64,000 bases of DNA from Escherichia phage vB_EcoM_EP57. The position numbers and the translations under genes are program-made. Location of the stretch: sequence record OR544956; one strand, given 5' to 3'. Below are positions 20,221-57,332 of the stretch, piece after piece; position 1 is the first letter of the stretch, and every line of letters starts with the position of its first letter. Under the pieces are notes generated by a model. It worked only from the letters and a program-made list of their open reading frames with translations. It made no database searches and was not told the origin of the DNA.

Positions 20221-21849
20221 TTATAAAGAGTTTTTATAAAAGAAAAGATACTCAACAACCATACCAGGTAAGCTTGCTGCCCCTGTTGGCGTTATTTCTG
20301 CTACCATTGTTTGTGTTGTTCCTACATCCATCGCAGATAAGCTAGGAGTGTAAACGCTCAATGTTGAAGCATATCCTCCAGAGGTATCTGATAAAGTTGT
20401 TCCTTCAGCGTTTAAGGCTGTCATACCTGCATCAAAACCACCTTCTGCATGGAAAGTCATTAAACCAGTAGATGATATTGTCATGTTTGCAGGGGCAGAA
20501 GAAGTGTATTTAATATTGAAAAGTTTACCTCCTTCTGGGCTAACAGAATGTGTCAACTGTTTAGTTCCACCTACAATACAAATTCCTAAAGAATCTGTAG
20601 TTAAGCCAGTTGCCAGAATATCACCCGTAATCACGGAGCTTGCTATTGGTGTGAATTTATTATAGTTTAGACCGCTATTGAACAGATACGAGGCTTTCCC
20701 ATCTTTCCAAATACCGGAATAATACATATCTCCATTATAAACGAAAAAGGTTCCTTGATAACCTAATTGGTTAGTAACATCCATATTCAGCGTATGAACG
20801 CTTGTGAGCTTGTTTATATCCCAAGAACCCACTCCTTCAGGTTTAACTGGTTTTCCCACTTGGAGTGGATCTCCGCTCGCAGAATCATACCCCAAACCTA
20901 AGTTTGCAGTGTAGTTCTTACCAATAGCCCACAAGGAATTATTGATCCCAACGAAAAAAGAGTGGCGGCTTGGTGGAAACTTCCATGTTGAGAAACCTGC
21001 TGCAAAGGTATCCAGTTTAGTGTAGGTTGTTTCTGTATTAGACCTAACATATAAGTAGTTTACTGTACCCGAGCCACCGGAGGTATCTCCTACAACTATT
21101 GTCTGGGAAACTGTATTGATGTAATCTTTGACATACACTGTTTCAGTAGCGGATATCTTAGCATTGACAAAAGCTGTTGTTGTGTTATTATTACCTGCTA
21201 AACCTTTACTAGCTCCACAAACACGCAAGGTTCCCACATTGTTGACATAAGAGCATTGGTTGTAACCTGCATCAAAAGCAACTGCTGCACTTGTTATCTG
21301 ACGAGGAGTAGAAACTTCGTTAGTAGTACTTGCACCTAAACTACCTACTGTGTTTTGACCTGATCCATAAAGAACACCACTATTCATTAACCAGAGAGTG
21401 TTGTTATATCCTCCCTTAACCTCTTTAAGATTGGCTAAAGAGATAGTCCCTGTTATTACAGATGGAAAGCTGGTCCAAGTAGTTACACATGCGTCCGTAC
21501 CACCTGCCGCTATAGATCCTACCAATCCTGCTGTCAATCCTGAATATTGCCATCCCCCACTGTTAGTTTTAATAACAAAACAACGATCTGCGGTAAACAC
21601 ATCCGCTACTACAGTAGAAGCTAAGTGGAAATTATTGAATCGTGCACTACGAGTTCCATCTGCAATCTCACCAAAAAGGTTTGCGCCTTGAGTAAACAAT
21701 CTACCATCATTAAGCAAAATTGCTAAACTGCTATTAGAATTACCAGCATTATCTGGGTAATCTAAAGTGATTACTTTTTTAACAATACCTGCTGGCAGAG
21801 GAACGACACCAGTGCTGGTCATAATAGTAAATATTGGAATTGGAAACAT
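20221..21849 (-). CDS. Tail fiber or receptor-binding protein (Gly/Thr/Ser-rich, repetitive)
   Basis: 542 aa, last gene of the late module; repeated G-x-hydrophobic segments. Confidence 0.4.
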   Translation of the reverse strand: MFPIPIFTIMTSTGVVPLPAGIVKKVITLDYPDNAGNSNSSLAILLNDGRLFTQGANLFGEIADGTRSARFNNFHLASTVVADVFTADRCFVIKTNSGGWQYSGLTAGLVGSIAAGGTDACVTTWTSFPSVITGTISLANLKEVKGGYNNTLWLMNSGVLYGSGQNTVGSLGASTTNEVSTPRQITSAAVAFDAGYNQCSYVNNVGTLRVCGASKGLAGNNNTTTAFVNAKISATETVYVKDYINTVSQTIVVGDTSGGSGTVNYLYVRSNTETTYTKLDTFAAGFSTWKFPPSRHSFFVGINNSLWAIGKNYTANLGLGYDSASGDPLQVGKPVKPEGVGSWDINKLTSVHTLNMDVTNQLGYQGTFFVYNGDMYYSGIWKDGKASYLFNSGLNYNKFTPIASSVITGDILATGLTTDSLGICIVGGTKQLTHSVSPEGGKLFNIKYTSSAPANMTISSTGLMTFHAEGGFDAGMTALNAEGTTLSDTSGGYASTLSVYTPSLSAMDVGTTQTMVAEITPTGAASLPGMVVEYLFFYKNSL

Positions 21850-21860
21850 TTAAACCCTCC

Positions 21861-21886
21861 ATAAAAAGAAAGCCCCTTTCGGGGCT
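21861..21886 (-). terminator. Intrinsic terminator (AGCCCC-GAAA-GGGGCU then U-run)
   Basis: Hairpin plus T-run immediately downstream of the 21891..23429 stop on the minus strand. Confidence 0.45.
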
Positions 21887-21890
21887 TCTG

Positions 21891-23429
21891 TTATCGTGTT
21901 ACAACAACCATGTCCACGATATCACCCACACCAGGATACGTTAATTGCAAAATTGTTACTGCGTTAGCAGTAGTTGCTATTTCTGTATCATTTAGTGCTC
22001 CATAAGACGCATCTAGTGTAACCGTGTGTCCCGTTGTATCTTGAATCAAATAAATCATTGCTGAAAACGCTTTAGGTTTTGTAGAGCCAGTGACACCAGG
22101 CCATGCTCCAACTGTCAGAGCGTCAGTTACTGTAACAACATACATATTGGAAGTTCCAGAAGGAGTCCAAGATGCTCCAGAGTTGGCAGTAGTTGTTTCA
22201 AGTTCCATGAAACCTGCTGTAACTCTAGTTGGTGTTATAGCTTCCGTAGGATCTGATCCTGATATTTCGATCCAGTTTCCATCAGAACGACCATACGTCA
22301 AGCCGTCTTGAGGGGCTTCTGGTATACTAGGAAGAGTTCCTATAAGTGTCCACGTAGAAGAATCTGTTTTCTTAAACACTGCTCCAGTGGTAGTATTGAA
22401 GGCGTAATCATTGATAACACCGTCTCCTGCGACTGGATTAGTTGTTGCTACAAACCATTGTGCGCCGTCCTTACCGACAAAATCTACTTCTGTCCCTTCA
22501 TTACCAGCATCCAGCCAACTTTGATATGCAGATTTCCCTTCGTCTCCATCTGTTCCATCTAGACCGTCTTTACCTGCCTCACCTTGTGGACCTTGAGGAC
22601 CAACAATATTACCCATGTTGACCCAAGCTGTCCCATTAGAGACATAAAGATTACCACTGATAGAATAAGCTTGGCTTACGTTTTCAGAGTTAGGTTGTGG
22701 TAAGTTACTTGTAGAAGGCAAATCTCCACGATAATCAAAACCGTTGGCGTTAACACCAGGTGCTCCCTGTGGCCCTGTAGGACCAACATCGCCTTTATCA
22801 CCTTTTATAGAGGTAAGAAAATCATAAACAGACCCTGTATTACCATCTGCCAACCATACCTCGTAAGCTGATTTACCTTCTGGCCCAAGAGAAGAAATAA
22901 GTTTCCAAACAGAACCATCCCAAGCGTAAATCACATCACCTACAATATAACCGTCCCCTGCAACGTTACCTGTGGATGGTAGTTCACTAGTGCTTGCTAA
23001 TGATCCTTTAATATTAAGTTGAGCACCAGTATCCCCTTTCAAAGAGGCAAGCCATTGTGCTTCTGTTCCAACAAAACCATTATCAAGTGCGATCTGATAA
23101 GCCGATTTACCAGCTTCAGGTATTGTTTCCGACAGATCATCAATTTGTTGCTGCACTGCCGTAAACTTGGCATTGATAATTGCTATATCATCAGCGGTCC
23201 CAACACTTTGCCATGCAAGGGAAGAAATACCACCTGTGGTGGCTGGCGTAGAGTTTGCTGGAACTACTTTAGGAAAAGTTCCTTTCCATTGGTAATAATT
23301 CCCTTCTGCTGCTAACAGCAAAACTTCACGGGAATTACGTAATGTAAAACCTGCCTCAAAGCTGCGACGTTTTCGATAAGTAGCTTCTACCAGATCGGCT
23401 ATCGCACTATTAGGTCTTGTTAAATTCAT
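21891..23429 (-). CDS. Tail fiber protein with collagen-like G-X-Y repeats
   Basis: GDKGDVGPTGPQGAPG and GPQGPQGEAGKDGLDGTDGDEGKSAY; repeated KSAYQ/EVWL modules. Confidence 0.6.
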   Translation of the reverse strand: MNLTRPNSAIADLVEATYRKRRSFEAGFTLRNSREVLLLAAEGNYYQWKGTFPKVVPANSTPATTGGISSLAWQSVGTADDIAIINAKFTAVQQQIDDLSETIPEAGKSAYQIALDNGFVGTEAQWLASLKGDTGAQLNIKGSLASTSELPSTGNVAGDGYIVGDVIYAWDGSVWKLISSLGPEGKSAYEVWLADGNTGSVYDFLTSIKGDKGDVGPTGPQGAPGVNANGFDYRGDLPSTSNLPQPNSENVSQAYSISGNLYVSNGTAWVNMGNIVGPQGPQGEAGKDGLDGTDGDEGKSAYQSWLDAGNEGTEVDFVGKDGAQWFVATTNPVAGDGVINDYAFNTTTGAVFKKTDSSTWTLIGTLPSIPEAPQDGLTYGRSDGNWIEISGSDPTEAITPTRVTAGFMELETTTANSGASWTPSGTSNMYVVTVTDALTVGAWPGVTGSTKPKAFSAMIYLIQDTTGHTVTLDASYGALNDTEIATTANAVTILQLTYPGVGDIVDMVVVTR

Positions 23430-23446
23430 TTATCTCTCCTATCATT

Positions 23447-23491: not shown

Positions 23492-24940
23492 TTAGGTTGT
23501 TGGCACATCTACTACTGGCGTTGGGCGAATAACCGCAGTATTACCTACAGAAACATTACTGGAATCATTAGGTATGGTTTTAATTCTAACTCCAGCACTT
23601 GTAGGCGTTACAATTGGATCTGCAATGTCTATTTTAACTGGGTTAGTCCACGTATCATTATCTTGATAAGGTGCACGAGTAATAACTGTGTCCAAATCTG
23701 CTCCACCTACGCCAGCACCAGGAATACGGATACGTGTCCCTGCTGACAGAGGGTAATGATACAACCAAGAAGCATTTGTTGCTGTCCCGTTAGGAGTCAA
23801 GTTCTGTGTCAGGAAGGTATCTCCTGCCTGTGTAGCTCGAATACCGAAAGCTGGGATATCTGGAATATATGCCCCACTTGTTGTTACAAGGAAGAACGTA
23901 TTATCCGCCTTGACTATCATATCACCTTTGTCAAACTCTTTCCCTGTTGGGAAATGCATTCCATCAATGTTTCGACTAGGATTAGGCTCTAAGTAATAAA
24001 CTTTGCCCGTTGTCCCTACAATAGCTCCAATACCACCTGCGATATTGGTATACATATTAGCTTCAACATTACAGTTGACACGATGAATATCCGAGTAACG
24101 GCAACGGCTCCACTGTGGACGACCAGTAACCATCGTCTTGCCATCTGGGTAACAGTTTACGTTAACCATTTCAAGAACAGATTTTTCTCTACGGAAGAAT
24201 CCATCATAAAATGTTCCTGGACCAGATTCAGGTTGACCAACACAATCGAAGATATTACAGGTGATGTTAGACATTGAAAGCCAAGAAGCTATACCGAACA
24301 ACTGCAATGCAGCGCAACGAATATTTTCAAAGCTAACTCTGTTTTCATAACCTGGCCCAGCGGAAACTCCCGCAAAAACACGCCCAGTTTTGGTGTGAAT
24401 GTTACGAACAGAATAGTTAAAGCATGGGTTTGAAGGTCTACCCTGTGCCGGAACTACCGGATTACCCTCTTCGTCCAGAACTGCGTTAGTTCCCCACTCC
24501 AAATAAATCATACGGATATTACTTGCAAGTGTGCTACCGTCTGTTTTAGGCTCCCCATAAACACCGTCAATCGTAAAATCTTTACTTCCATACATTACAA
24601 CTGCGCCAGTTGCCAAACCTGTCCCAACAGATACGGTTTGATCTGGATCGCCATGAATGTTTTCGATAGAAATATTACGACCAACTTCTACGTGGACAAT
24701 CTGACGGCAACGTTTTGCAAAAACGTTACGAATTGTAATATTCTTGCAATATTGATCATCAGGGATTCCGTAACCATATGGTCCTTTACCAGCTACACCG
24801 ATACCGATACCCCAGTTGGACAGAGGAATAGGAGCGTTAGTCCCATCGATATTAGACAGGTAAATATTCTCAATCACACAACCATCATCATAATGTTTAT
24901 TGATGACGTTCAGTTCTATCGCATCACCTTGCATGTCCAT
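23492..24940 (-). CDS. Tailspike or tail fiber C-terminal segment with a parallel beta-helix (pectate-lyase-like) region
   Basis: NITIRNV...ISIENIHG...NIRMIYLEWG repeats; its frame is open upstream of the first Met and overlaps the end of 24970..25704 in the -1 frame. Confidence 0.5.
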   Translation of the reverse strand: MDMQGDAIELNVINKHYDDGCVIENIYLSNIDGTNAPIPLSNWGIGIGVAGKGPYGYGIPDDQYCKNITIRNVFAKRCRQIVHVEVGRNISIENIHGDPDQTVSVGTGLATGAVVMYGSKDFTIDGVYGEPKTDGSTLASNIRMIYLEWGTNAVLDEEGNPVVPAQGRPSNPCFNYSVRNIHTKTGRVFAGVSAGPGYENRVSFENIRCAALQLFGIASWLSMSNITCNIFDCVGQPESGPGTFYDGFFRREKSVLEMVNVNCYPDGKTMVTGRPQWSRCRYSDIHRVNCNVEANMYTNIAGGIGAIVGTTGKVYYLEPNPSRNIDGMHFPTGKEFDKGDMIVKADNTFFLVTTSGAYIPDIPAFGIRATQAGDTFLTQNLTPNGTATNASWLYHYPLSAGTRIRIPGAGVGGADLDTVITRAPYQDNDTWTNPVKIDIADPIVTPTSAGVRIKTIPNDSSNVSVGNTAVIRPTPVVDVPTT

Positions 24941-24969
24941 GAAGGTAAGGTTACGGAAGACACCACGTG

Positions 24970-25704
24970 TTACTGGTTCCCCTGTCCCTTGTTGAAGCCA
25001 TATAACCCGTTTTTAAAAGTACAGTTATCAATTTCAAAAGTACCTGATATTGGGTTGCCTTGGAATACCAAGCTACCAACTTGACCTGCGCGAGGAGCAC
25101 CGTCCCACAAACAATCGAACATGCGCACAGCACCACCCCAATACATAACACGAGAGTTACGGAAAGTTGTGCCTTCTACTGTAGCATTTTGCACACGATA
25201 GTCGCGTTGACCACGGAACACACCCCCACGCAAAGTGATATCTTGAATATCAAAAGAGCTTGTCGTGAAAGTCATATCGCAACCGTAAGCATCGAGAATC
25301 TTGCTTTTCGAAGCTTTTGCTGCTAACAGTGCCGCCTGGAAAGCTGCTTCTGGTGTGGTATAGGTAGTTGTATTGTTAGCAAATTCTGACAAGTAGACAA
25401 CATCGAATAAATCGTTGTATGTTCCACCACGAGGGGTTAACAGTCCTTCCGTATTAGTTAGAACCCATGCGTTTGGACCTAATCCACCGCTTGTCTCTAA
25501 TGTGTCAGAGGCCAAAATACTTTTTGGTAAACTTCCAGCCCAACGATAACGACCAGCACCACGTCCAATCGTCTGATTTTTAGCTGTCAGGGTTACGTTA
25601 TTACCAAAGCTTGTAGGCAAATGGACAAATTGTCCACGTTCAACAGCCAGTGCAGAAAGATCTACAGATCCCCCAGAATAAGTCATTACTCCAGAAACAG
25701 ACAA
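24970..25704 (-). CDS. Tailspike middle segment, probably the same gene as 23492..24940
   Basis: This frame is open upstream of its TTG start; junction to the downstream ORF lies at a TTTTAAAAA run near 25010. Confidence 0.4.
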   Translation of the reverse strand: MSVSGVMTYSGGSVDLSALAVERGQFVHLPTSFGNNVTLTAKNQTIGRGAGRYRWAGSLPKSILASDTLETSGGLGPNAWVLTNTEGLLTPRGGTYNDLFDVVYLSEFANNTTTYTTPEAAFQAALLAAKASKSKILDAYGCDMTFTTSSFDIQDITLRGGVFRGQRDYRVQNATVEGTTFRNSRVMYWGGAVRMFDCLWDGAPRAGQVGSLVFQGNPISGTFEIDNCTFKNGLYGFNKGQGNQ

Positions 25705-25709
25705 AGATG

Positions 25710-26261
25710 TTAAAGTTCCTGTAATGTTAGGAGGTAGTGTGTAGGAAGACTGTGACTATCTTCTATGCGGAAAGCTTCCCCCAGAACCTGAATAACACCA
25801 TTGATCGTAACAATAGCACTATCAAAGATGTAAGGAGGACTAATTACTGTTTCATAACCAGTTGCACCAGAATATACCCAAGGGGTGACTTCTGTTGCCA
25901 ATTGTTCTGTCTTCAGTCCCCACAATACCCAGTTGTTATCTCCTACTGGAGTCCCTTGCATAGGGATAGGGTTAACCAATGTAGCGTTAGGAGCATAGTA
26001 ATAACCGCTCAATACTCCATTCTGGAAATAACGAAGTTGGTTAAAAACTGTTTCGTTTGTGCCTTGCGCCCAATCCAATGGGCTTTTAAAGAAAAAGTTG
26101 TCAACAAGGGCTTTTCTCAGGGTTGGTATCAACCCTGATTCTGTTTCAATACTCTCTGTAGCACTTCCATTAATAACATCATGGAGTTGGTTAGATGAGA
26201 AAATAACCAGGTCTACGCCCTGTTCGAGAGACGTTGCTGGATATGTTGGGAATGTTGCCAT
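25710..26261 (-). CDS. Tailspike N-terminal segment or separate tail-associated protein
   Basis: Ends 5 nt upstream of the next ORF; both frames are open across the junction. Confidence 0.35.
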   Translation of the reverse strand: MATFPTYPATSLEQGVDLVIFSSNQLHDVINGSATESIETESGLIPTLRKALVDNFFFKSPLDWAQGTNETVFNQLRYFQNGVLSGYYYAPNATLVNPIPMQGTPVGDNNWVLWGLKTEQLATEVTPWVYSGATGYETVISPPYIFDSAIVTINGVIQVLGEAFRIEDSHSLPTHYLLTLQEL

Positions 26262-27591: not shown

Positions 27592-27933
27592 TTACACTCC
27601 ATACTCGTAAGAAATGTTATCAAGGTCAAAAGAAGGGACAACATTATAAGCAGGAACTATATTATTCTCTGTATATTTACTGTCATCCTCAGTATTAAGT
27701 TTAACATAAACACGAAGAGAAGTCAAGCGTCCAAAAGCAAGTGCTGCATAAATAACCCCTTTGATTTGATCGTTCGTTACTGAAGAACCTAATTCAAAGT
27801 AAGCTTGCAGGTTTTGTAAAGCTTCTACGATGTTTTGTTTTTCTGTTCCACTTAAAGTTGTTCCGTTGACAGTTTGATAAACAAGTTTTACAGAATACAT
27901 AGCAGAAGCACCTTTCTTCAGCACTCCCTCCAT
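27592..27933 (-). CDS. C-terminal segment of the baseplate J-like protein (different frame from 27794..28969)
   Basis: Overlaps 27794..27933 with the upstream ORF, whose last ~40 residues look out-of-frame. Confidence 0.35.
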   Translation of the reverse strand: MEGVLKKGASAMYSVKLVYQTVNGTTLSGTEKQNIVEALQNLQAYFELGSSVTNDQIKGVIYAALAFGRLTSLRVYVKLNTEDDSKYTENNIVPAYNVVPSFDLDNISYEYGV

Positions 27934-28969
27934 AAACTATAGTCTGGAAAGTCATAGCTGGAGCATGTTCTTGATCATGTAACGTAGGGTTATCATAAAT
28001 CTTCACCTTAGTAACACCATCTGTAAGTAACAGAGCTTTCACAATAGCTGCTCGTGTCCCTGCGTTAGCTTCGTCAACGTTGTCATTGAAACGAGAGCGG
28101 AATTCTGCGTCTGTCTCAACATCTCGACCAGGGGAAAATGAATAGAAGTTACCACTATCAAGATAACCTGTAAAGGTAGAAGATATCCCTGTAATAGACT
28201 CCACACCAACAGGATTGTATCCTTTCTCTGCTGCAACTACCGGAATCTCACTCCACTTGGTTCCAACCGGAACACTAGCATAAAATTTAATAGGAGTTAC
28301 CAGTCCCACTGGAGTATCACTGGTTAAAGAAGTAAAACCAATTGATAAGTTACCTGAATCAGAAAATACAAGACTACGATCAGCTTCTGTTAAATTTGCC
28401 TTGATAAAAGTTTCAAGATCGGTTATAAATGTAGAAGAACCAGGTGCAAGTGTTTTACTGTTTAGTCCTCCATCGACCGCACTTTGTGCATAAAAAGTAA
28501 TATTTGGAACACCTGTAGCAGTTGCATTAGCACGAGAGATTTGATAAGCTGCAATCTTAGCATTCAACATGGTTGGTGTGCTAACATAATAGTTCATATC
28601 ACTATCAGAGTTGAAGTAAATATCCGTGCCTAACTCATAAGTCCAAGCTGCTTTGTTATTACTCTTAACATATGCATAACCTGTACTTGCTGCTGCCCCT
28701 GCTCGATAGAAACCGCGTTTAGAAAAAATTTCGTCAAGATAAATACCTTCTGCGCCATCTAGTGTTTGAGTATTATAAACACCTTGCATACCTTCCCACA
28801 ATGTGTAATCTGTGTATGCAATTATTCTAAACAGTTGTCCGATCACAGTATCTTCAGAAGTGGCTGCATCTGCACCAAATGTGTTTTTTACTGCTGTCAT
28901 ATAATTGTTTAGAACATCGTCAAAAGTCGGGATTACAAATCCCGCATCTGTTAAACCATATTCGTCCAT
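27794..28969 (-). CDS. Baseplate J-like (gp6/gpJ-like) wedge protein, frame-disrupted near its C-terminus
   Basis: N-terminus MDEYGLTDAGFVIPTFDDVLNNYMTAVKN... resembles Baseplate_J family; C-terminus ERCFCYVFCKTCLSNCQRNN looks like frame noise. Confidence 0.45.
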   Translation of the reverse strand: MDEYGLTDAGFVIPTFDDVLNNYMTAVKNTFGADAATSEDTVIGQLFRIIAYTDYTLWEGMQGVYNTQTLDGAEGIYLDEIFSKRGFYRAGAAASTGYAYVKSNNKAAWTYELGTDIYFNSDSDMNYYVSTPTMLNAKIAAYQISRANATATGVPNITFYAQSAVDGGLNSKTLAPGSSTFITDLETFIKANLTEADRSLVFSDSGNLSIGFTSLTSDTPVGLVTPIKFYASVPVGTKWSEIPVVAAEKGYNPVGVESITGISSTFTGYLDSGNFYSFSPGRDVETDAEFRSRFNDNVDEANAGTRAAIVKALLLTDGVTKVKIYDNPTLHDQEHAPAMTFQTIVYGGSAEERCFCYVFCKTCLSNCQRNNFKWNRKTKHRRSFTKPASLL

Positions 28970-31291: not shown

Positions 31292-31885
31292 TTACTCAGT
31301 AACGTCCACACTAATGTTTGCCATTGTCAAAACAGTAAGTGCAGGAATATTGCTCGAATCCAAAACAGGTAATGCATTTTGGGGATTAAGTTTTTTGTAT
31401 AAGGCATACAACCCAAAACCACGTAACAACTCTCCAGCGTGGAAGCCAAAGAAAACTCCGTTATCACTGTCTGGTCTAGGGGCAGCACTCCAACAACCAT
31501 TCATAACGTGATTAGGACCAAGAACAATATAATTTTCCTGAATAAGTTCAAAACAGCGGTCTGCTACTATTTTAATGTTAGGAATTTCTGAATCATATCC
31601 AGCCATCCCCATTATAGCACATCCCGCCATAAAGAGCGCAGACATGTGACTTGTAAAGTCATCTACAGGCGCAGCCACTTCTCCGTTGGGATAAAATATT
31701 GTTGGTGTTCTTCCTTCGTTGTTATCTTGGAACCACTTCAGATAGTTGATCCAGTTTTTACAAACTGTTAAAAGTTTTTCAGGAACTTCTGCTCCTCGTC
31801 GCTTTAGTTCGTATACCGTATGACACGCACAGAAGAATGCTCGTGCTTCATAACCATCCCAAGCTTTATCGTTCCAATGATACAT
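31292..31885 (-). CDS. Tail fiber or depolymerase segment 4 of 4
   Basis: Overlaps the upstream ORF in the -1 frame. Confidence 0.35.
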   Translation of the reverse strand: MYHWNDKAWDGYEARAFFCACHTVYELKRRGAEVPEKLLTVCKNWINYLKWFQDNNEGRTPTIFYPNGEVAAPVDDFTSHMSALFMAGCAIMGMAGYDSEIPNIKIVADRCFELIQENYIVLGPNHVMNGCWSAAPRPDSDNGVFFGFHAGELLRGFGLYALYKKLNPQNALPVLDSSNIPALTVLTMANISVDVTE

Positions 31886-32340
31886 TGTGAACTCATTTTT
31901 GTTTCCATAACATAAGCTTGTGCCATTGGCCCAGGCATTACAGGGGCAAACTTATTATAAAACCACATTTGTGAATCATATAAAAAGTCTATACTGTTGT
32001 TCATACGAACCCAGTCAATATCTCTCCCTTTAAAACAATATAAGGATGGGTATTGATAACCTGGGTAAGGAATACCACGCCAACCGTCATATAATGCTGT
32101 GTTAGGATCACTAATATTGGAAAATGGAATGATTCCTGGAGTATAATTCAAACTATCAAGTTTGTAGTCCAGTATTGTACAATCTCCAAGTTTTGCTGTA
32201 TAAGGATTTTCAGATGAAACTGTAACCCTGAAATACATTGTGTAATCATCGCCAGCGGCTGAAGAATACAAAGATGGGATATCGTTAACGCAATAAAAGT
32301 CGATTGCCCCTGTCAAGCCATTTGCAGGTTCAGAATCCAA
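31804..32340 (-). CDS. Tail fiber or depolymerase segment 3 of 4
   Basis: Frame open upstream of its TTG start, reading ...TAVDQINIALDSEPANG. Confidence 0.35.
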   Translation of the reverse strand: MDSEPANGLTGAIDFYCVNDIPSLYSSAAGDDYTMYFRVTVSSENPYTAKLGDCTILDYKLDSLNYTPGIIPFSNISDPNTALYDGWRGIPYPGYQYPSLYCFKGRDIDWVRMNNSIDFLYDSQMWFYNKFAPVMPGPMAQAYVMETKMSSQCIIGTIKLGMVMKHEHSSVRVIRYTN

Positions 32341-32356
32341 TGCAATATTGATCTGA

Positions 32357-33406
32357 TCAACAGCAGTCAGGTTTATTGACGAAGGTTTTGCCTCGTTGCC
32401 AAGTACTTAATTTGAAATCGGCAGGACTTAAAGCTTTAGTAACCCATGCAGAATTTGTTTTTTCTAACATGGCCCACCATCTCCAACCTGCGGAATCCGT
32501 AATAGTGATGTTAAAATCATCTGCGTATGAACGATATGTAATAGATTTTAAATTGGCTGTTTTAGTTGGTGTTAACCAAAACCCAACAGTAAAACCACCA
32601 TCTGAATCCATATTAGCAGAAACTATCTGATCACTATTTGTCCCAGCAATACCAGTTGCATATTTATATTGTATCACAGTATTGCTTCCCCAGTCAACAA
32701 TAATTCTGGGTTCAGCAATAATATATACACCCCCTCCAGGAGGTTCAGTGCGCATAAAACTGGATAAAGGTATATCCATCTTAGTCATATTAGCTGCACC
32801 AAGAGGTAAGCCACAACGATATGTCACTGTGTCTGTTTCACTCTTAGTCTTGCTTAATTCTAACTCTGGACGGAAAAGAACACCTTCCCCTGCATCATCT
32901 ACACCTTGAAACTCAATACGCAGTTTTGAATTCTGATCCACTCTGAACCAAACTGCTTGTTGTTCTAGAGTTGTTTGTGCTGCAACATCTTGGCGAATTA
33001 CTGTGTATCCTAACTCGTCACGAGAATATTTAGGTATTGCTGTAGATGGGTATGAGTAATCATACGAGATACCATCTGTAAAAGGAATTATTGCTGTCGT
33101 AGATCTACGGAAGAATTTATCAAACATATCGATGTTTGAGTAGTCTTGACACAGCAATAAAGAAGATTGCCAGCAAAGCCAGTATTTTCTCTCTCCTGTG
33201 ATCTGATACATCAGGTAGTTTGCATCACACCACCACGTTTCAGCATCGGAAGCATTATCTTGATAACCTAACTCTACCGGAACGTTTACAGGACGGTTAT
33301 GCCACATCTCATTACGCTTAAGCAGATATCCACCGTGTTCTACAGGGTTGCATGTAGCGTAGTTGAATTTATAGTCACCGTTCACAGAAGCATTTTTAAG
33401 TTGCAC
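32357..33406 (-). CDS. Tail fiber or depolymerase segment 2 of 4
   Basis: Frame is open upstream into 33481..34107 (reads ...ADKAWFAFNGNLGWNSVNATVYAINPDG...). Confidence 0.4.
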   Translation of the reverse strand: MQLKNASVNGDYKFNYATCNPVEHGGYLLKRNEMWHNRPVNVPVELGYQDNASDAETWWCDANYLMYQITGERKYWLCWQSSLLLCQDYSNIDMFDKFFRRSTTAIIPFTDGISYDYSYPSTAIPKYSRDELGYTVIRQDVAAQTTLEQQAVWFRVDQNSKLRIEFQGVDDAGEGVLFRPELELSKTKSETDTVTYRCGLPLGAANMTKMDIPLSSFMRTEPPGGGVYIIAEPRIIVDWGSNTVIQYKYATGIAGTNSDQIVSANMDSDGGFTVGFWLTPTKTANLKSITYRSYADDFNITITDSAGWRWWAMLEKTNSAWVTKALSPADFKLSTWQRGKTFVNKPDCC

Positions 33407-33480
33407 TGTTCCATATTCTGCAAAGCTGTGACCTGTAGATAAAATGTTACCGTCCCAATCAACTTTACGTCCTAGACGAT

Positions 33481-34107
33481 CTATAATCCATTCAACGTCC
33501 CACTGATCTCCATATTCTTTCCAGTTGGTTGAACCGTCTGGGTTAATTGCATAAACTGTTGCGTTAACGGAGTTCCAACCAAGATTACCATTGAAAGCAA
33601 ACCAAGCTTTATCTGCGCACCTTTAGGAATAATAGTCCTTCCGTTAATCCAAGTCATCATGCTACCTTTGAACCCACCGTGCGTAGGATACCCATCATCT
33701 GTGAGAGGATAGTGTGCTAAACGTGGTTCTTTACCATTGATGATCCAGTTGGGACGATATTTAGCTGGAGGATCAGGAATAGGTTGGCCCCCGAAGAAGT
33801 GATCTATATAGGCTTGCCAATACTTCTCGGCAGATTCAAGATATTTTTTATCCCCTGTAGCCAAATATGCATAAGCAAAACCAGTGATAAGCACAGATTG
33901 ACCTTCGGTAGTAGCGTCACCGTTTGGTTGCCCTTCCTGCGCTGTCCAGTTAATAAAGTGTCTGTTGTTCGCCAATACGTTTTGTGGGTTGATAATGTAA
34001 TGCTGAACCGTAGGATCTATGGTAAGCCCAGTATTTCTTTCCAAAAACTGAACCAACCCTTCAATCAACTGAAACGTGTTGTCAATATTGTGCTTAACTC
34101 TTGACAT
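33481..34107 (-). CDS. Tail fiber or depolymerase segment 1 of 4 with a glycosidase-like (alpha/alpha-toroid-like) motif
   Basis: VLITGFAYAYLATGDKKYLESAEKYWQAYIDHF; C-terminal ~35 aa look out-of-frame. Confidence 0.4.
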   Translation of the reverse strand: MSRVKHNIDNTFQLIEGLVQFLERNTGLTIDPTVQHYIINPQNVLANNRHFINWTAQEGQPNGDATTEGQSVLITGFAYAYLATGDKKYLESAEKYWQAYIDHFFGGQPIPDPPAKYRPNWIINGKEPRLAHYPLTDDGYPTHGGFKGSMMTWINGRTIIPKGAQIKLGLLSMVILVGTPLTQQFMQLTQTVQPTGKNMEISGTLNGL

Positions 34108-34400
34108 TAAATAACTCCTGCTAAAACTAAGCTACCTGTCCAAGTTGCACCATTATCATAACTGATAAACTCAAAAGTGTCTGTTGCACCTTGACGATAA
34201 CTCAAAACTGGGGAACGACCAAAACTCCATTTTACAGAAGAAGGCCATACGACTTTATTTGCACCACTTCCTTGACGCAAAGCTAAAGTAAAGTTTAAAA
34301 CTGCATTTGTTGCTACTGGAATATTAGTAAAACTAATTGTGCACGTTGCAGAAGATAAAGTTGCAGAAAAATATTCTGCTGAACTAATATCTAATGCCAA
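34107..34400 (-). CDS. Small tail or baseplate protein
   Basis: ORF track. Confidence 0.3.
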   Translation of the reverse strand: MALDISSAEYFSATLSSATCTISFTNIPVATNAVLNFTLALRQGSGANKVVWPSSVKWSFGRSPVLSYRQGATDTFEFISYDNGATWTGSLVLAGVI

Positions 34401-49981: not shown

Positions 49982-52057
49982 TTATCTTTTACGGACACTA
50001 TACGGTTGGTGAAATCCGCTGTTCATTCTACTGTATCCTGTAGGAGCATTTGTTGTTGTAGGGATAGCTACTGCTTTGAAAGTATTCTCTTTTGACAGAG
50101 TATTAAAACAAGAGGCAGCAGCATCGGGAATGTCATCTTTAATAGTGGCTGTAGATCTTTCACCATTGAAAGATTCCAATTCTTTATAAAAGTGGGTTAA
50201 AGTCTCCACATTAGGGAAAGAATCTTCAACAATATAAACAAAACCGTTTTGACACGCACTACTAAAAGGCATGAAACGCTGAAGCTTTTTCTTGTTACCT
50301 GGCATAGCATCTGGTTTAACAACAAAACCCTCTAGAATAAGTTTCTTTGCAGACTCTGTGTATTCTATTGTCCCAGCACCAGATGGGTCTTTAGGAAGCA
50401 CTACTGTAACTTCTGGTCCATCAATCTTACATTGATTTAGAATCAGGTTATCCCTTTCCCCAGGTAGTCTTCGAAACCTTCCGAAAATTTTACTTTTCTC
50501 ATCCACAGCATCATAATCATAGTCGCCAAAGATGTAGATATTACCATCTTGGTCTTTACCCATTTTGACAGATGTTGTATAGTCTGGATAACGGTAAGTT
50601 TCTGTAGGAACTGAAACAGCTTTATCCCATGCTCGCATTAGTTTAAGATTGTTAGGAACATCTTTATAAGATATTTTATGTAACCATTCACGTTGAAAGA
50701 AAGATTCTTTCTGGATACGTGCAAACCAACAACCGTCCAGAAGCTGTGCTCTTTTGATCGCTGTTTGTGATTTAAGCTGTGCTAAGTAATTAGGGTTAAG
50801 CCTAATGAGTTCTGGGTTATCAAATATTGTCCCACCAATAAATACGAAAGTTTGTGGTTCAATAACAACTGTCTCCCCTGTATTAGGGTTTTCCATGAAA
50901 CAGTTTTCTGGATATTTTTCTTTCAGTTCTTCAGGTGTGTCAGCAAAAACAGGTTCATCGTTAACAATGATGAAATATTTTTGTTTACCACACATATCTT
51001 CTCTAGGATAACCACCCTCATCAAGATAAGGTAACACCCAATTCAAAACCCAACTATCTGCGTCAGGGTTACATGTGCACAACATGAAACTTGTTTCTGA
51101 CTCTGAACGCATACGTCCCAGAAGATAGAGCATTTCATATTGTGTGAAGTGGGTTAACTCGTCAAAACCTACCATTGAATACTGTGTACCCTGATGGTTT
51201 GTTTCTGCTGTTACGTTATCATTTTCCAAATGGTCAAATTTGAGGGTTCCGCCACCAGTGGCTTCAAAAATGATATCCATTGTACTTTCTTTTACGTGTG
51301 GTTGTAAAGGAAGATACAAACGTTTTGCTTCTGTAAACAGACCACCTGGTTTACGGTGAGCAGTGGTGTTCTTACGGAAAAGTATTCCACCAAACAAAGG
51401 GTCTTTGTAGGCGTATTTTAAAGCTTTCAGCAATAGCAGACGAGACTTGCCGCTATTCCCAGTAACGAAGCAGTGATCGCCACGTCTAAAGACAATATAG
51501 CTGCTTGGAGTCTCAAAACAATATTTCTTATCATCTGTTGAAATAACCTCGTGTATTTTTAAGTAAGTGCTCTTTTTACCAGGTATGTTAAAAGGAACAC
51601 GTTTACCGAATGGATTTTCTACATAACCTTGCAGGGGTTTTCCTATTTGCTGTAATGCAATAAGATCTCCTACAAGAATCTCGAAATGTTTCTTTGATTT
51701 CTTTTTCTTATAGAATACAAAACGGTGTTCCATACTAAGTTCTTGGAATAATCCTACACCATTTGTTATTCTGTATAGGTTATCTCCATTTAAATCGTAT
51801 TCTACAAAATAAGGTGTTACCAATTCTAAACGCTTATTCTTAGGATTGTATTGGTAAATATCCTCTCCCGAATATTCACTAATCTGCCTCCAACCATCTT
51901 TTGTAAGATATTCCGTTTCAGCAGAAACACATCCAGCGGCACCACCATAAATCATAACCTCTGGCATTAAATCCATTGCAAGAGTCTGTTTACCTGGTTG
52001 AGCCTTTACTTCAATATCTACTCCAGCTAAACTACCTGCTGCCTTTTTCTTTGCCAC
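49982..52057 (-). CDS. Terminase large subunit, intein-containing
   Basis: Walker A split as GGAAG / SGKS by an insertion; C-terminal nuclease region; 691 aa including a 159-aa intein. Confidence 0.8.
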   Translation of the reverse strand: MAKKKAAGSLAGVDIEVKAQPGKQTLAMDLMPEVMIYGGAAGCVSAETEYLTKDGWRQISEYSGEDIYQYNPKNKRLELVTPYFVEYDLNGDNLYRITNGVGLFQELSMEHRFVFYKKKKSKKHFEILVGDLIALQQIGKPLQGYVENPFGKRVPFNIPGKKSTYLKIHEVISTDDKKYCFETPSSYIVFRRGDHCFVTGNSGKSRLLLLKALKYAYKDPLFGGILFRKNTTAHRKPGGLFTEAKRLYLPLQPHVKESTMDIIFEATGGGTLKFDHLENDNVTAETNHQGTQYSMVGFDELTHFTQYEMLYLLGRMRSESETSFMLCTCNPDADSWVLNWVLPYLDEGGYPREDMCGKQKYFIIVNDEPVFADTPEELKEKYPENCFMENPNTGETVVIEPQTFVFIGGTIFDNPELIRLNPNYLAQLKSQTAIKRAQLLDGCWFARIQKESFFQREWLHKISYKDVPNNLKLMRAWDKAVSVPTETYRYPDYTTSVKMGKDQDGNIYIFGDYDYDAVDEKSKIFGRFRRLPGERDNLILNQCKIDGPEVTVVLPKDPSGAGTIEYTESAKKLILEGFVVKPDAMPGNKKKLQRFMPFSSACQNGFVYIVEDSFPNVETLTHFYKELESFNGERSTATIKDDIPDAAASCFNTLSKENTFKAVAIPTTTNAPTGYSRMNSGFHQPYSVRKR
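51455..51931 (-). other. Mini-intein (Hint domain without homing endonuclease) inserted in the terminase P-loop
   Basis: Begins with Cys (CVSAETEYL) right after GGAAG and ends ...DHCFVTGN followed by SGKS; removing it restores a GGAAGSGKS-type P-loop. Confidence 0.6.
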
Positions 52058-52060
52058 TCC

Positions 52061-52405
52061 TTATTCAGCAATAATACCTTTTTCTTGCAGTGTTTTAATA
52101 TATGTTTGTAAACCTAGAACCTTTCGTCTATCTTGCTCCCAAAGAGCATTGTTTTGAGTTTGGTTGTTAACAACTTCAGATCTACTAACCCCTTTTGCAA
52201 TTTGATTTTTAGTGTATGGCACAGGTGTCGATACTTTATCCATCAAGTCCGAATCTGGACCTTTAACCTTTTCTATGGCTACAGCCTTACACTCATCAAT
52301 AAGAACTGGGGAAACTTTTGTTGATGATGAACAACCCGTCATCATTAGGGGCAAAGCAAGACATACTGCCAGAATTAGTTTTTGCATAATTCGTTGTATC
52401 CTCAT
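52061..52405 (-). CDS. Outer-membrane spanin (o-spanin, Rz1-like lipoprotein)
   Basis: Lipobox LMMTGC; overlaps the 3' end of the i-spanin gene in another frame. Confidence 0.45.
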   Translation of the reverse strand: MRIQRIMQKLILAVCLALPLMMTGCSSSTKVSPVLIDECKAVAIEKVKGPDSDLMDKVSTPVPYTKNQIAKGVSRSEVVNNQTQNNALWEQDRRKVLGLQTYIKTLQEKGIIAE

Positions 52406-56915: not shown

Positions 56916-57332
56916 ATGAGATTTACAAGACAAGAGGTAGTTGTACTTGACGAAGCAATGACAATGATCGTCTTTTACTATGAGGATATCTTCTGTGCAG
57001 CATATCATTTAAATGATATTCAGATTGAATGGAAGCAGATAGCATTCCTGTTGGACAAGAGTAATCATTTGGATGGCTTTGAGTATTTGGAGTGGGATGG
57101 TGCAAAGGAAGTTAAAATTGTAGGGTTAAATCACGATCAGATTGTTGACATGCAATGTAAGTTGTGTCATTATCAGTTCTCAAACAATCCTGGCAACAAT
57201 TGTTCTGATTTTTGCCATGTGTGTGGTTCACGATGTTCTGGTAAGCTACTTTTGAAGACACAAGATGTGTCCTACAGCCGTGTTACGCTTACTGGCGACC
57301 ATACCCCAATCATGGAGTACGTAAAGAAATGA
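56916..57332 (+). CDS. Cys-rich hypothetical protein
   Basis: CKLCHY ... CHVCGSRC; taggaggctagaATG. Confidence 0.4.
   Translation: MRFTRQEVVVLDEAMTMIVFYYEDIFCAAYHLNDIQIEWKQIAFLLDKSNHLDGFEYLEWDGAKEVKIVGLNHDQIVDMQCKLCHYQFSNNPGNNCSDFCHVCGSRCSGKLLLKTQDVSYSRVTLTGDHTPIMEYVKK

Follow-up and report, generated by a model that had tools for sequence, protein, structure and literature searches.

What is encoded by the 512-amino-acid (aa) open reading frame (ORF) at 21891..23429 (-) in a 64,000-nucleotide (nt) stretch of Escherichia phage vB_EcoM_EP57 (record OR544956; hereafter, the window), and does its deposited length correspond to the protein that the phage makes? The record labels the product a 'hypothetical protein', 100% identical over 512 aa to the translation analyzed here. 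A preliminary description, made from the sequence alone, proposed a tail fiber in which collagen-like Gly-X-Y tracts, interspersed with repeated KSAY modules, build a modular triple-helical shaft. Our analysis partly supports this interpretation: the kind of protein was correctly recognized, but too much of it was taken to be triple-helical. It contained neither the membership of the protein in a well-populated, annotated family nor the loss of 162 central residues compared with 60 listed relatives. We consider the gene to encode a lateral tail fiber of the gp087/TfpM2 type, which would work as a trimer, and the 486-bp gap in it to be an artefact of the record; to this combined reading we assign a probability of roughly 0.8.

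The ORF list places the ATG at 23429 and the stop codon at 21891-21893, in exact agreement with the limits given previously. The strand, which had not been given, is minus; a plus-strand frame for 21891-23429 was rejected because its translation is riddled with stops.

Family and genomic locus

Compared with PHROGs, the protein matches phrog_15437 ('tail fiber protein') in two stretches with an E-value (E) of 2e-299. The gene is matched at 90% DNA identity or more by 64 records, and in the 30 Phapecoctavirus records listed for identity (phAPEC8, nieznany, tuntematon, ESCO5 and others) the identity is 98.4-99.5%; at the protein level, identity to phAPEC8 and nieznany is 99-100% over shared columns. 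Orthologs in Phapecoctavirus records are annotated as tail fiber, tail spike and, once, 'collagen triple helix repeat protein', and a 681-aa ortholog is named TfpM2 in the 'Wecvirus' paper on related phages (PMC12695924). The locus is collinear with those of phAPEC8 and tuntematon, with the same gene order, and within this conserved lateral-fiber locus the gene is flanked on one side by that of a colanic-acid-degrading tailspike and on the other by that of an RCC1/Ig-like tail protein. Given this orthology (phrog_15437, 98-99.5% DNA identity) and synteny, the ORF is, on sequence grounds, the ortholog of phAPEC8 gp087/TfpM2, a lateral tail fiber of Phapecoctavirus (Stephanstirmvirinae), and the original call of a tail fiber stands. 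The gene family is already known and annotated in dozens of genomes, and collagen-like tracts in phage tail fibers are likewise established.

The collagen-like tracts

Both Gly-X-Y peptides quoted in the preliminary description were found in the minus-strand translation: tract 1, GDKGDVGPTGPQGAPG (22755..22802 (-); aa 210-225), and tract 2, GPQGPQGEAGKDGLDGTDGDEG (22536..22601 (-); aa 277-298), the latter covered by the best Pfam Collagen stretch (aa 277-299). A regular-expression search returned two uninterrupted Gly-X-Y runs, of 6 triplets (aa 210-227) and 8 triplets (aa 277-300). At least one run of five or more triplets occurred in 214 of 20,000 composition-preserving shuffles of the protein (~1%), so that the tracts lie far above shuffle expectation. 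The periodicity is therefore real, but the description of the shaft as triple-helical went too far. Gly-X-Y accounts for ~40 of the 512 residues, the match of the protein to Pfam Collagen (PF01391), at 22.9 bits, is below the 27.2-bit gathering cut-off, and the AlphaFold2 (AF2) model presents a shaft made mostly of helix-loop-helix repeats, each 26 aa long, and of small beta domains.

Within this more limited share, the periodicity of the tracts suggests that they may fold as collagen-type triple helices. A rival reading, which we consider unlikely, is that they serve as flexible, glycine-rich linkers or as hinges that connect trimeric modules. In its favor, the tracts comprise just 5-8 triplets and contain little proline (5 Pro over 13 triplets), the window copy stays under the Pfam Collagen threshold, the NCBIfam models of streptococcal and Legionella collagen-like adhesins (Scl1, Scl2, Lcl) score 19-20 bits against cut-offs of 325-500, amounting to a compositional Gly-X-Y match, and the predicted local distance difference test (pLDDT) values of the AF2 monomer model fall below 50 at the tracts, tract 1 included. 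However, such low values in a monomer model are as expected for a segment that would fold only as a trimer, and the Pfam score of the window copy is low because the 486-bp gap removes the two longest tracts of the gene; a full-length ortholog (P0002) passes Pfam Collagen with 46.2 bits in 4 stretches. In the orthologs, Gly occupies strictly every third residue across four tracts, the lengths of which differ by multiples of three. The charged, hydroxyproline-free composition, too, is characteristic of collagens from bacteria and phages. Finally, the tracts are bordered by modules that are candidates for trimerization and by a foldon-like unit, an arrangement that stabilizes short triple helices (PMC3368898), and a collagen-foldon chimera (PDB 1nay) is among the PDB sequence matches of the window protein.

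The missing residues of the fiber gene

The phAPEC8, nieznany and tuntematon orthologs are 674 aa long, and full length is 665-681 aa in all 60 relatives listed for this comparison (of the 64 matches); the window copy falls short, skipping 162 residues after aa 318. Alignment with blastn to phAPEC8 and tuntematon, together with protein alignment, places the junction of the 486-bp gap at 22476..22477. The absent piece consists of the residues ASLKG, collagen tract 3 (10 triplets), beta modules B3 and B4, and collagen tract 4 (11 triplets), the two absent tracts being the longest in the gene and leaving the window copy with two tracts against four in the orthologs. Each of the 60 listed relatives spans the junction as two pieces over 769-787 bp, compared with 301 bp here. 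The 486-bp segment is also the only divergent part of the gene between lineages, with 73.9% identity vs 98.5% and 99.3% in its flanks. Repeat-mediated deletion was rejected, since neither a direct repeat nor microhomology was found at the junction and the DNA-level repeats of the gene are negligible; a prophage or contaminant replicon as the source of the junction was rejected as well, the junction sequence being absent from 5,426 complete E. coli genomes. A look-up of the exact protein among assemblies likewise gave no entry.

This gap is one of many. Relative to tuntematon, the window contains ~31 gaps of 2-4,044 bp, ~10.8 kb in total, alongside one 3-bp insertion, and the same gaps were recovered against phAPEC8. 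Their junctions lie at ~4379, 18527, 20246, 22476, 25756, 26585, 27912, 29148, 29549, 38604, 43406, 54926, 57186-57252, 57721, 58122 and 63004, plus 15 small gaps, and 9 of the 31 are multiples of three, which is the chance expectation. A baseplate wedge gene (window 27592-28969), whose product has 495 aa in relatives, is broken into ORFs of 391 and 113 aa, and the gene of a 958-aa tail protein (31292-34400 (-)) into four ORFs by gaps of 25, 17 and 19 bp; both splits are incompatible with a viable virion. Two gaps, of 281 and 4 bp, likewise divide the neighboring colanic-acid-degrading tailspike (23492-26261 (-)), which has 1,017 aa in relatives, leaving three ORFs that encode 183, 244 and 482 aa. 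EP57 nevertheless forms plaques, with a burst; its genome has been described as ~20 kb shorter than those of relatives, with 'no TerL found' (PMC11657129). In the window, the TerL ORF (49982..52057 (-), 691 aa, GTG start) is intact, and a 6-bp spacer between its Shine-Dalgarno sequence and start codon, GGAAAT, is absent compared with tuntematon (window 52052-52062 (-)).

Whole cassettes are missing as well. The genomes of tuntematon and phAPEC8 are collinear outside four cassettes in which non-homologous sequences replace one another, and none of the four is present in the window. The absent cassettes (~20246, 26585, 29148 and 57721) comprise the TfpM1 C-terminus, a short-fiber tip with its assembly chaperone, a gene for a tailspike or endo-N-acetylneuraminidase, and a block of small genes that spans 2.3-3.8 kb. 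The first of these losses, a 1,090-bp gap, leaves the neighboring tail protein TfpM1 (20221-21849 (-)) without ~350 C-terminal residues. As an observation in its own right, TfpM1 combines an RCC1-like beta-propeller with a Big_2 Ig-like domain, which is unusual for a phage receptor-binding protein.

The substitutions number 38/12/271 at codon positions 1/2/3, and 80% are transitions. This strong third-position and transition bias indicates that a genuine genome underlies the gaps, and we rejected the idea that the substitutions stem from mutation introduced across the window at random or by simulation. Because the ~31 gaps fragment essential genes of a plaque-forming phage and remove every hypervariable cassette, we read the 486-bp gap as one more artefact: 512 aa is most probably not the biological length of the fiber, and an assembly or consensus artefact probably affects the whole record. 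The combination of small random dropouts with the loss of every divergent cassette is the pattern that a consensus would show after removal of the stretches that were uncovered or could not be mapped.

We find it improbable that the deletion is genuine, such that EP57 would make a shortened 512-aa fiber devoid of two collagen tracts and two beta modules, a loss that a modular shaft might tolerate. The gap is indeed in frame, and the ORF runs whole from ATG to stop, with a ribosome-binding site (Shine-Dalgarno AGGAG at 23436..23440 (-), 6 nt 5' of the ATG at 23429, read from the sequence) and a strong intrinsic terminator 2 nt past the stop codon (21863..21888 (-); stem GAAGCCCC-GAAA-GGGGCTTT followed by a T-run), at a place equivalent to that annotated 3' of the tail-fiber gene in phAPEC8. 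The junction joins a GKSAY repeat to a beta module in a manner resembling the natural K1-B1 junction (see below), and the lost part is a variable cassette, the type of segment that recombination reshuffles. An in-frame gap is, however, expected by chance about once in three, close to the 9 of 31 seen in the window; the remaining gaps wreck essential genes of a viable phage; the junction has no homology pointing to recombination; and the deletion is shared by 0 of the 60 listed relatives.

The probable artefactual origin of the gap bears on the use of the record. At 130,723 bp vs ~150 kb in relatives, the vB_EcoM_EP57 record apparently lacks ~14% of the sequence in many closed-up gaps, among them every hypervariable receptor-binding cassette, and inference of host range or 'safety' from EP57 gene content is therefore unreliable, as is repeat or length analysis of the fiber. 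The case yields little biological news, and its practical value is a quality warning on the source record, with the widespread GKSAY repeat, which lacks a family model and a structure, as a secondary point.

The GKSAY and beta modules

The claim that the fiber contains repeated KSAY modules proved correct. The motif occurs three times, at aa 108 (GKSAYQIAL), 186 (GKSAYEVWL) and 299 (GKSAYQSWL), and even a single KSAY arose in just 88 of 20,000 composition-preserving shuffles. Each copy belongs to a K module of 26 residues, predicted to form a helix-loop-helix, with the consensus GKSAYxxAVxxGFxGTExxWLxSLxG. Repeat detection by pairwise module alignment gave z = 9-11 for the K modules and z = 4-13 for the beta (B) modules, scores that were reached by 0-2 of 500 shuffles; the repeats persist on re-translation, and the protein can rightly be called modular. 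At the DNA level, repeats are barely visible (tandem repetition is limited to one element of 9 nt x 2.3, and the codons GGTAAATCAGCTTA, encoding GKSAY, recur once), and the modules are therefore old protein-level repeats.

From the N-terminal side, K1 (23034..23111 (-); aa 107-132, with AF2 helices at 110-116 and 123-131) leads into B1, a small four-stranded beta module (22878..23033 (-); aa 133-184, AF2 strands 139-178, pLDDT >90). K2 (22800..22877 (-); aa 185-210), recognized by motif, AF2 model and module alignment, precedes tract 1, and B2 (22602..22754 (-); aa 226-276), delimited by the AF2 model (pLDDT 93-96) and the repeat z-scores, precedes tract 2. K3 (22476..22538 (-); aa 298-318) stops after 21 of its 26 residues, as is apparent from alignment with the 674-aa orthologs, and is followed across the junction by B5 (22329..22475 (-); aa 319-367, AF2 strands 325-365, pLDDT ~90), which is weakly similar to B1 (z 5.7).

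The repeat reaches far beyond this gene. Among 120 retrieved homologs, we counted 569 copies of the 26-aa K repeat, with up to 13 per protein, and a 107-aa K1-B1-K2 query, that is, two GKSAY repeats around a beta module, retrieved 7,498 protein-cluster representatives at E <=1e-3 (2,250 at <=1e-10), including one 2,782-aa protein with 38 matching stretches. In repeat-rich proteins with 13 or 38 copies, Pfam reported no family, and elsewhere faint DUF2934 matches; searches of the PDB by sequence and by profile, in which the K and B modules served as queries, found no relative of the repeat, the matches to DARPin and HincII being noise (E ~0.1 or more), and a literature search for the motif strings likewise produced only noise. 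By these searches, the GKSAY repeat is a very common fiber module without a Pfam model or solved structure, and structurally uncharacterized. Because the repeat is so widespread, and has neither a Pfam model nor a sequence relative in the PDB, we leave room for the tentative idea that the 26-residue K and ~50-aa B blocks constitute an undescribed trimeric 'clamp' system that would hold very short collagen segments in register.

The anchor, neck, foldon-like hairpin and tip

The N-terminal region carries the anchoring domain Tail_spike_N (PF18668; 23199..23396 (-), aa 12-77; 69.8 bits vs a cut-off of 25). PDB sequence matches to tailspike N-domains (9vvr, 9occ, 5w6h, 4oj5, 6nw9 and 4qnl) agree with Foldseek matches of the AF2 model to CBA120 TSP1/3/4 and G7C gp63.1, which are confined to the N-domain over ~77 aligned columns; a weak Foldseek match to 9ny6_C, a capsid spike of Pa223 (E 4e-4, template modeling (TM) score 0.16-0.26), was set aside. 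The middle fragment of the neighboring colanidase carries the same Tail_spike_N domain. By analogy with CBA120 and G7C, the domain presumably docks on a branched complex of receptor-binding proteins. It is very hard to credit, all the same, that the protein is an enzymatic tailspike (depolymerase) and not a fiber: Tail_spike_N is shared with the CBA120 TSPs and the adjacent colanidase, and some records label the ortholog 'tail spike protein', but Pfam, PHROGs and the AF2 model reveal no beta-helix or glycosidase domain, the body consists of repeats ending in a ~115-aa beta-sandwich tip, and the Foldseek tailspike matches go no further than the N-domain.

The anchor is followed by a neck, modeled by AF2 as a single long helix (23124..23186 (-); aa 82-102) and putatively a trimeric coiled coil. 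Beyond the shaft lies a foldon-like hairpin, IPEAPQDGLTYGRSDGNWIEISG (22260..22328 (-); aa 368-390), with AF2 hairpin strands at 378-382 and 385-389. In phmmer comparisons with T4 fibritin and foldon chains in the PDB, it scores at E 0.002-0.02; Pfam reports no Fibritin_C (PF07921) in the window protein, and at the aligned position of a distant ortholog (P0016) this family scores 37.2 bits vs a cut-off of 21. Separately, we observed that four distant orthologs (P0016, P0017, P0022 and P0025) carry two tandem copies of the foldon-like unit, (E/D)APxDGxxYxRxxGxW, which in these proteins scores as Fibritin_C.

The protein ends in a C-terminal beta-sandwich tip (21894..22244 (-); aa 396-512, AF2 strands 410-511), presumed to be the receptor-binding domain. 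The tip matches the C-terminus of phrog_4549 at 4e-41, is ~51% identical to the C-termini of Vequintavirus lateral tail fibers (e.g., AlexBoehm and naswa), and matches residues 684-790 of the phiTE tail-fiber protein (PDB 9cuy_g) at E 1.5e-10. According to the phiTE paper, the density models cover only N-terminal parts of the fibers, and the tip may therefore not be experimentally resolved.

A proposed mechanism

Beyond the orthology, synteny, domain content and repeat structure, which were observed directly, we infer the following steps. Three chains would build one fiber as a homotrimer, with the N-domain docking it onto a branched, multivalent adsorption apparatus beside the colanic-acid-degrading tailspike that carries the same domain; a multivalent, 'Swiss-army-knife' adsorption apparatus has been described for phi92-like phages. 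The helical neck would lead into a beaded shaft, in which the 26-aa GKSAY repeats and ~50-aa beta modules could act as trimer clamps. Kept in register by these clamps, the Gly-X-Y segments, which are short, charged and poor in proline, would form miniature collagen triple helices of ~5-10 nm each. At 2.9 Å per residue (PMC3368898), the rods would measure ~5 and 6.5 nm for the tracts present in the window copy and ~9 and 10 nm for the missing ones. The foldon-like hairpin, C-terminal to the shaft, would nucleate the trimer and lock its register, and the beta-sandwich tip may contact a surface glycan or lipopolysaccharide.

Four points temper our confidence in this reading of the protein and its gap. 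Tracts of only 5-8 triplets, at pLDDT <50 in the AF2 monomer, are no more than candidates for a triple helix. The assignment of the protein to a particular fiber of the virion, or to a receptor, is deduced from sequence, and the BASEL paper calls the assignment of genes to fibers in this phage group 'far from clear'. The gap is not only in frame but falls roughly at module boundaries, such that a protein with a real deletion would probably still fold. Lastly, EP57 was assembled de novo with SPAdes (PMC11657129), which does not by itself yield closed-up gaps, and the route by which the artefact might have arisen is thus conjectural.

Comparison with known systems

The closest counterpart is phAPEC8 gp087 (YP_007348547.1, 674 aa), which is ~99% identical over the 512 shared residues, with the same neighbors and the same terminator, and differs in possessing ortholog aa 319-480, that is, the two collagen tracts and two beta modules absent from the EP57 record. 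At the N-terminus, the PF18668 domains of CBA120 TSP1/3/4 and G7C gp63.1/gp66 match window aa 12-79 in both sequence and fold, but those proteins run on into beta-helix enzymes, whereas the window protein runs into a repeat shaft. At the opposite end, the phiTE fiber (PDB 9CUY/9MJN chain g, 793 aa) and the Vequintavirus lateral fibers share a homologous tip of ~110 aa, while the rest of these proteins is unrelated to the window protein. The T4 fibritin foldon resembles the window protein in the hairpin motif IPEAPxDGxxYxRxDGxW and, as here, stands C-terminal to a triple-stranded or putatively triple-stranded shaft; the window hairpin differs in being internal and under Pfam detection, with significance reached only in distant orthologs, where the unit is duplicated.

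For the proposed collagen segments, the relevant precedents are EPclA and EPclB of E. coli O157:H7 prophages. These contain one or two long collagen domains (~110 residues) together with PfN, PCoil, Pf2 and PfC, in contrast to the many short tracts of the window protein, and Pfam scans of the window protein and its homologs (E up to 0.1-1) returned none of PfN (PF08400), Pf2 (PF03406) and PfC (PF06820). In EPclA, a side-tail-fiber protein, the collagen domain shows cooperative melting at 42 C, and its refolding is brought about by the trimerization domain next to it (PMC3368898). As in the window protein, the Gly-X-Y domain of EPclA and EPclB lies between non-collagen domains, which are trimerizing in these prophage proteins, and there the triple helix has been experimentally shown (PMC3368898).

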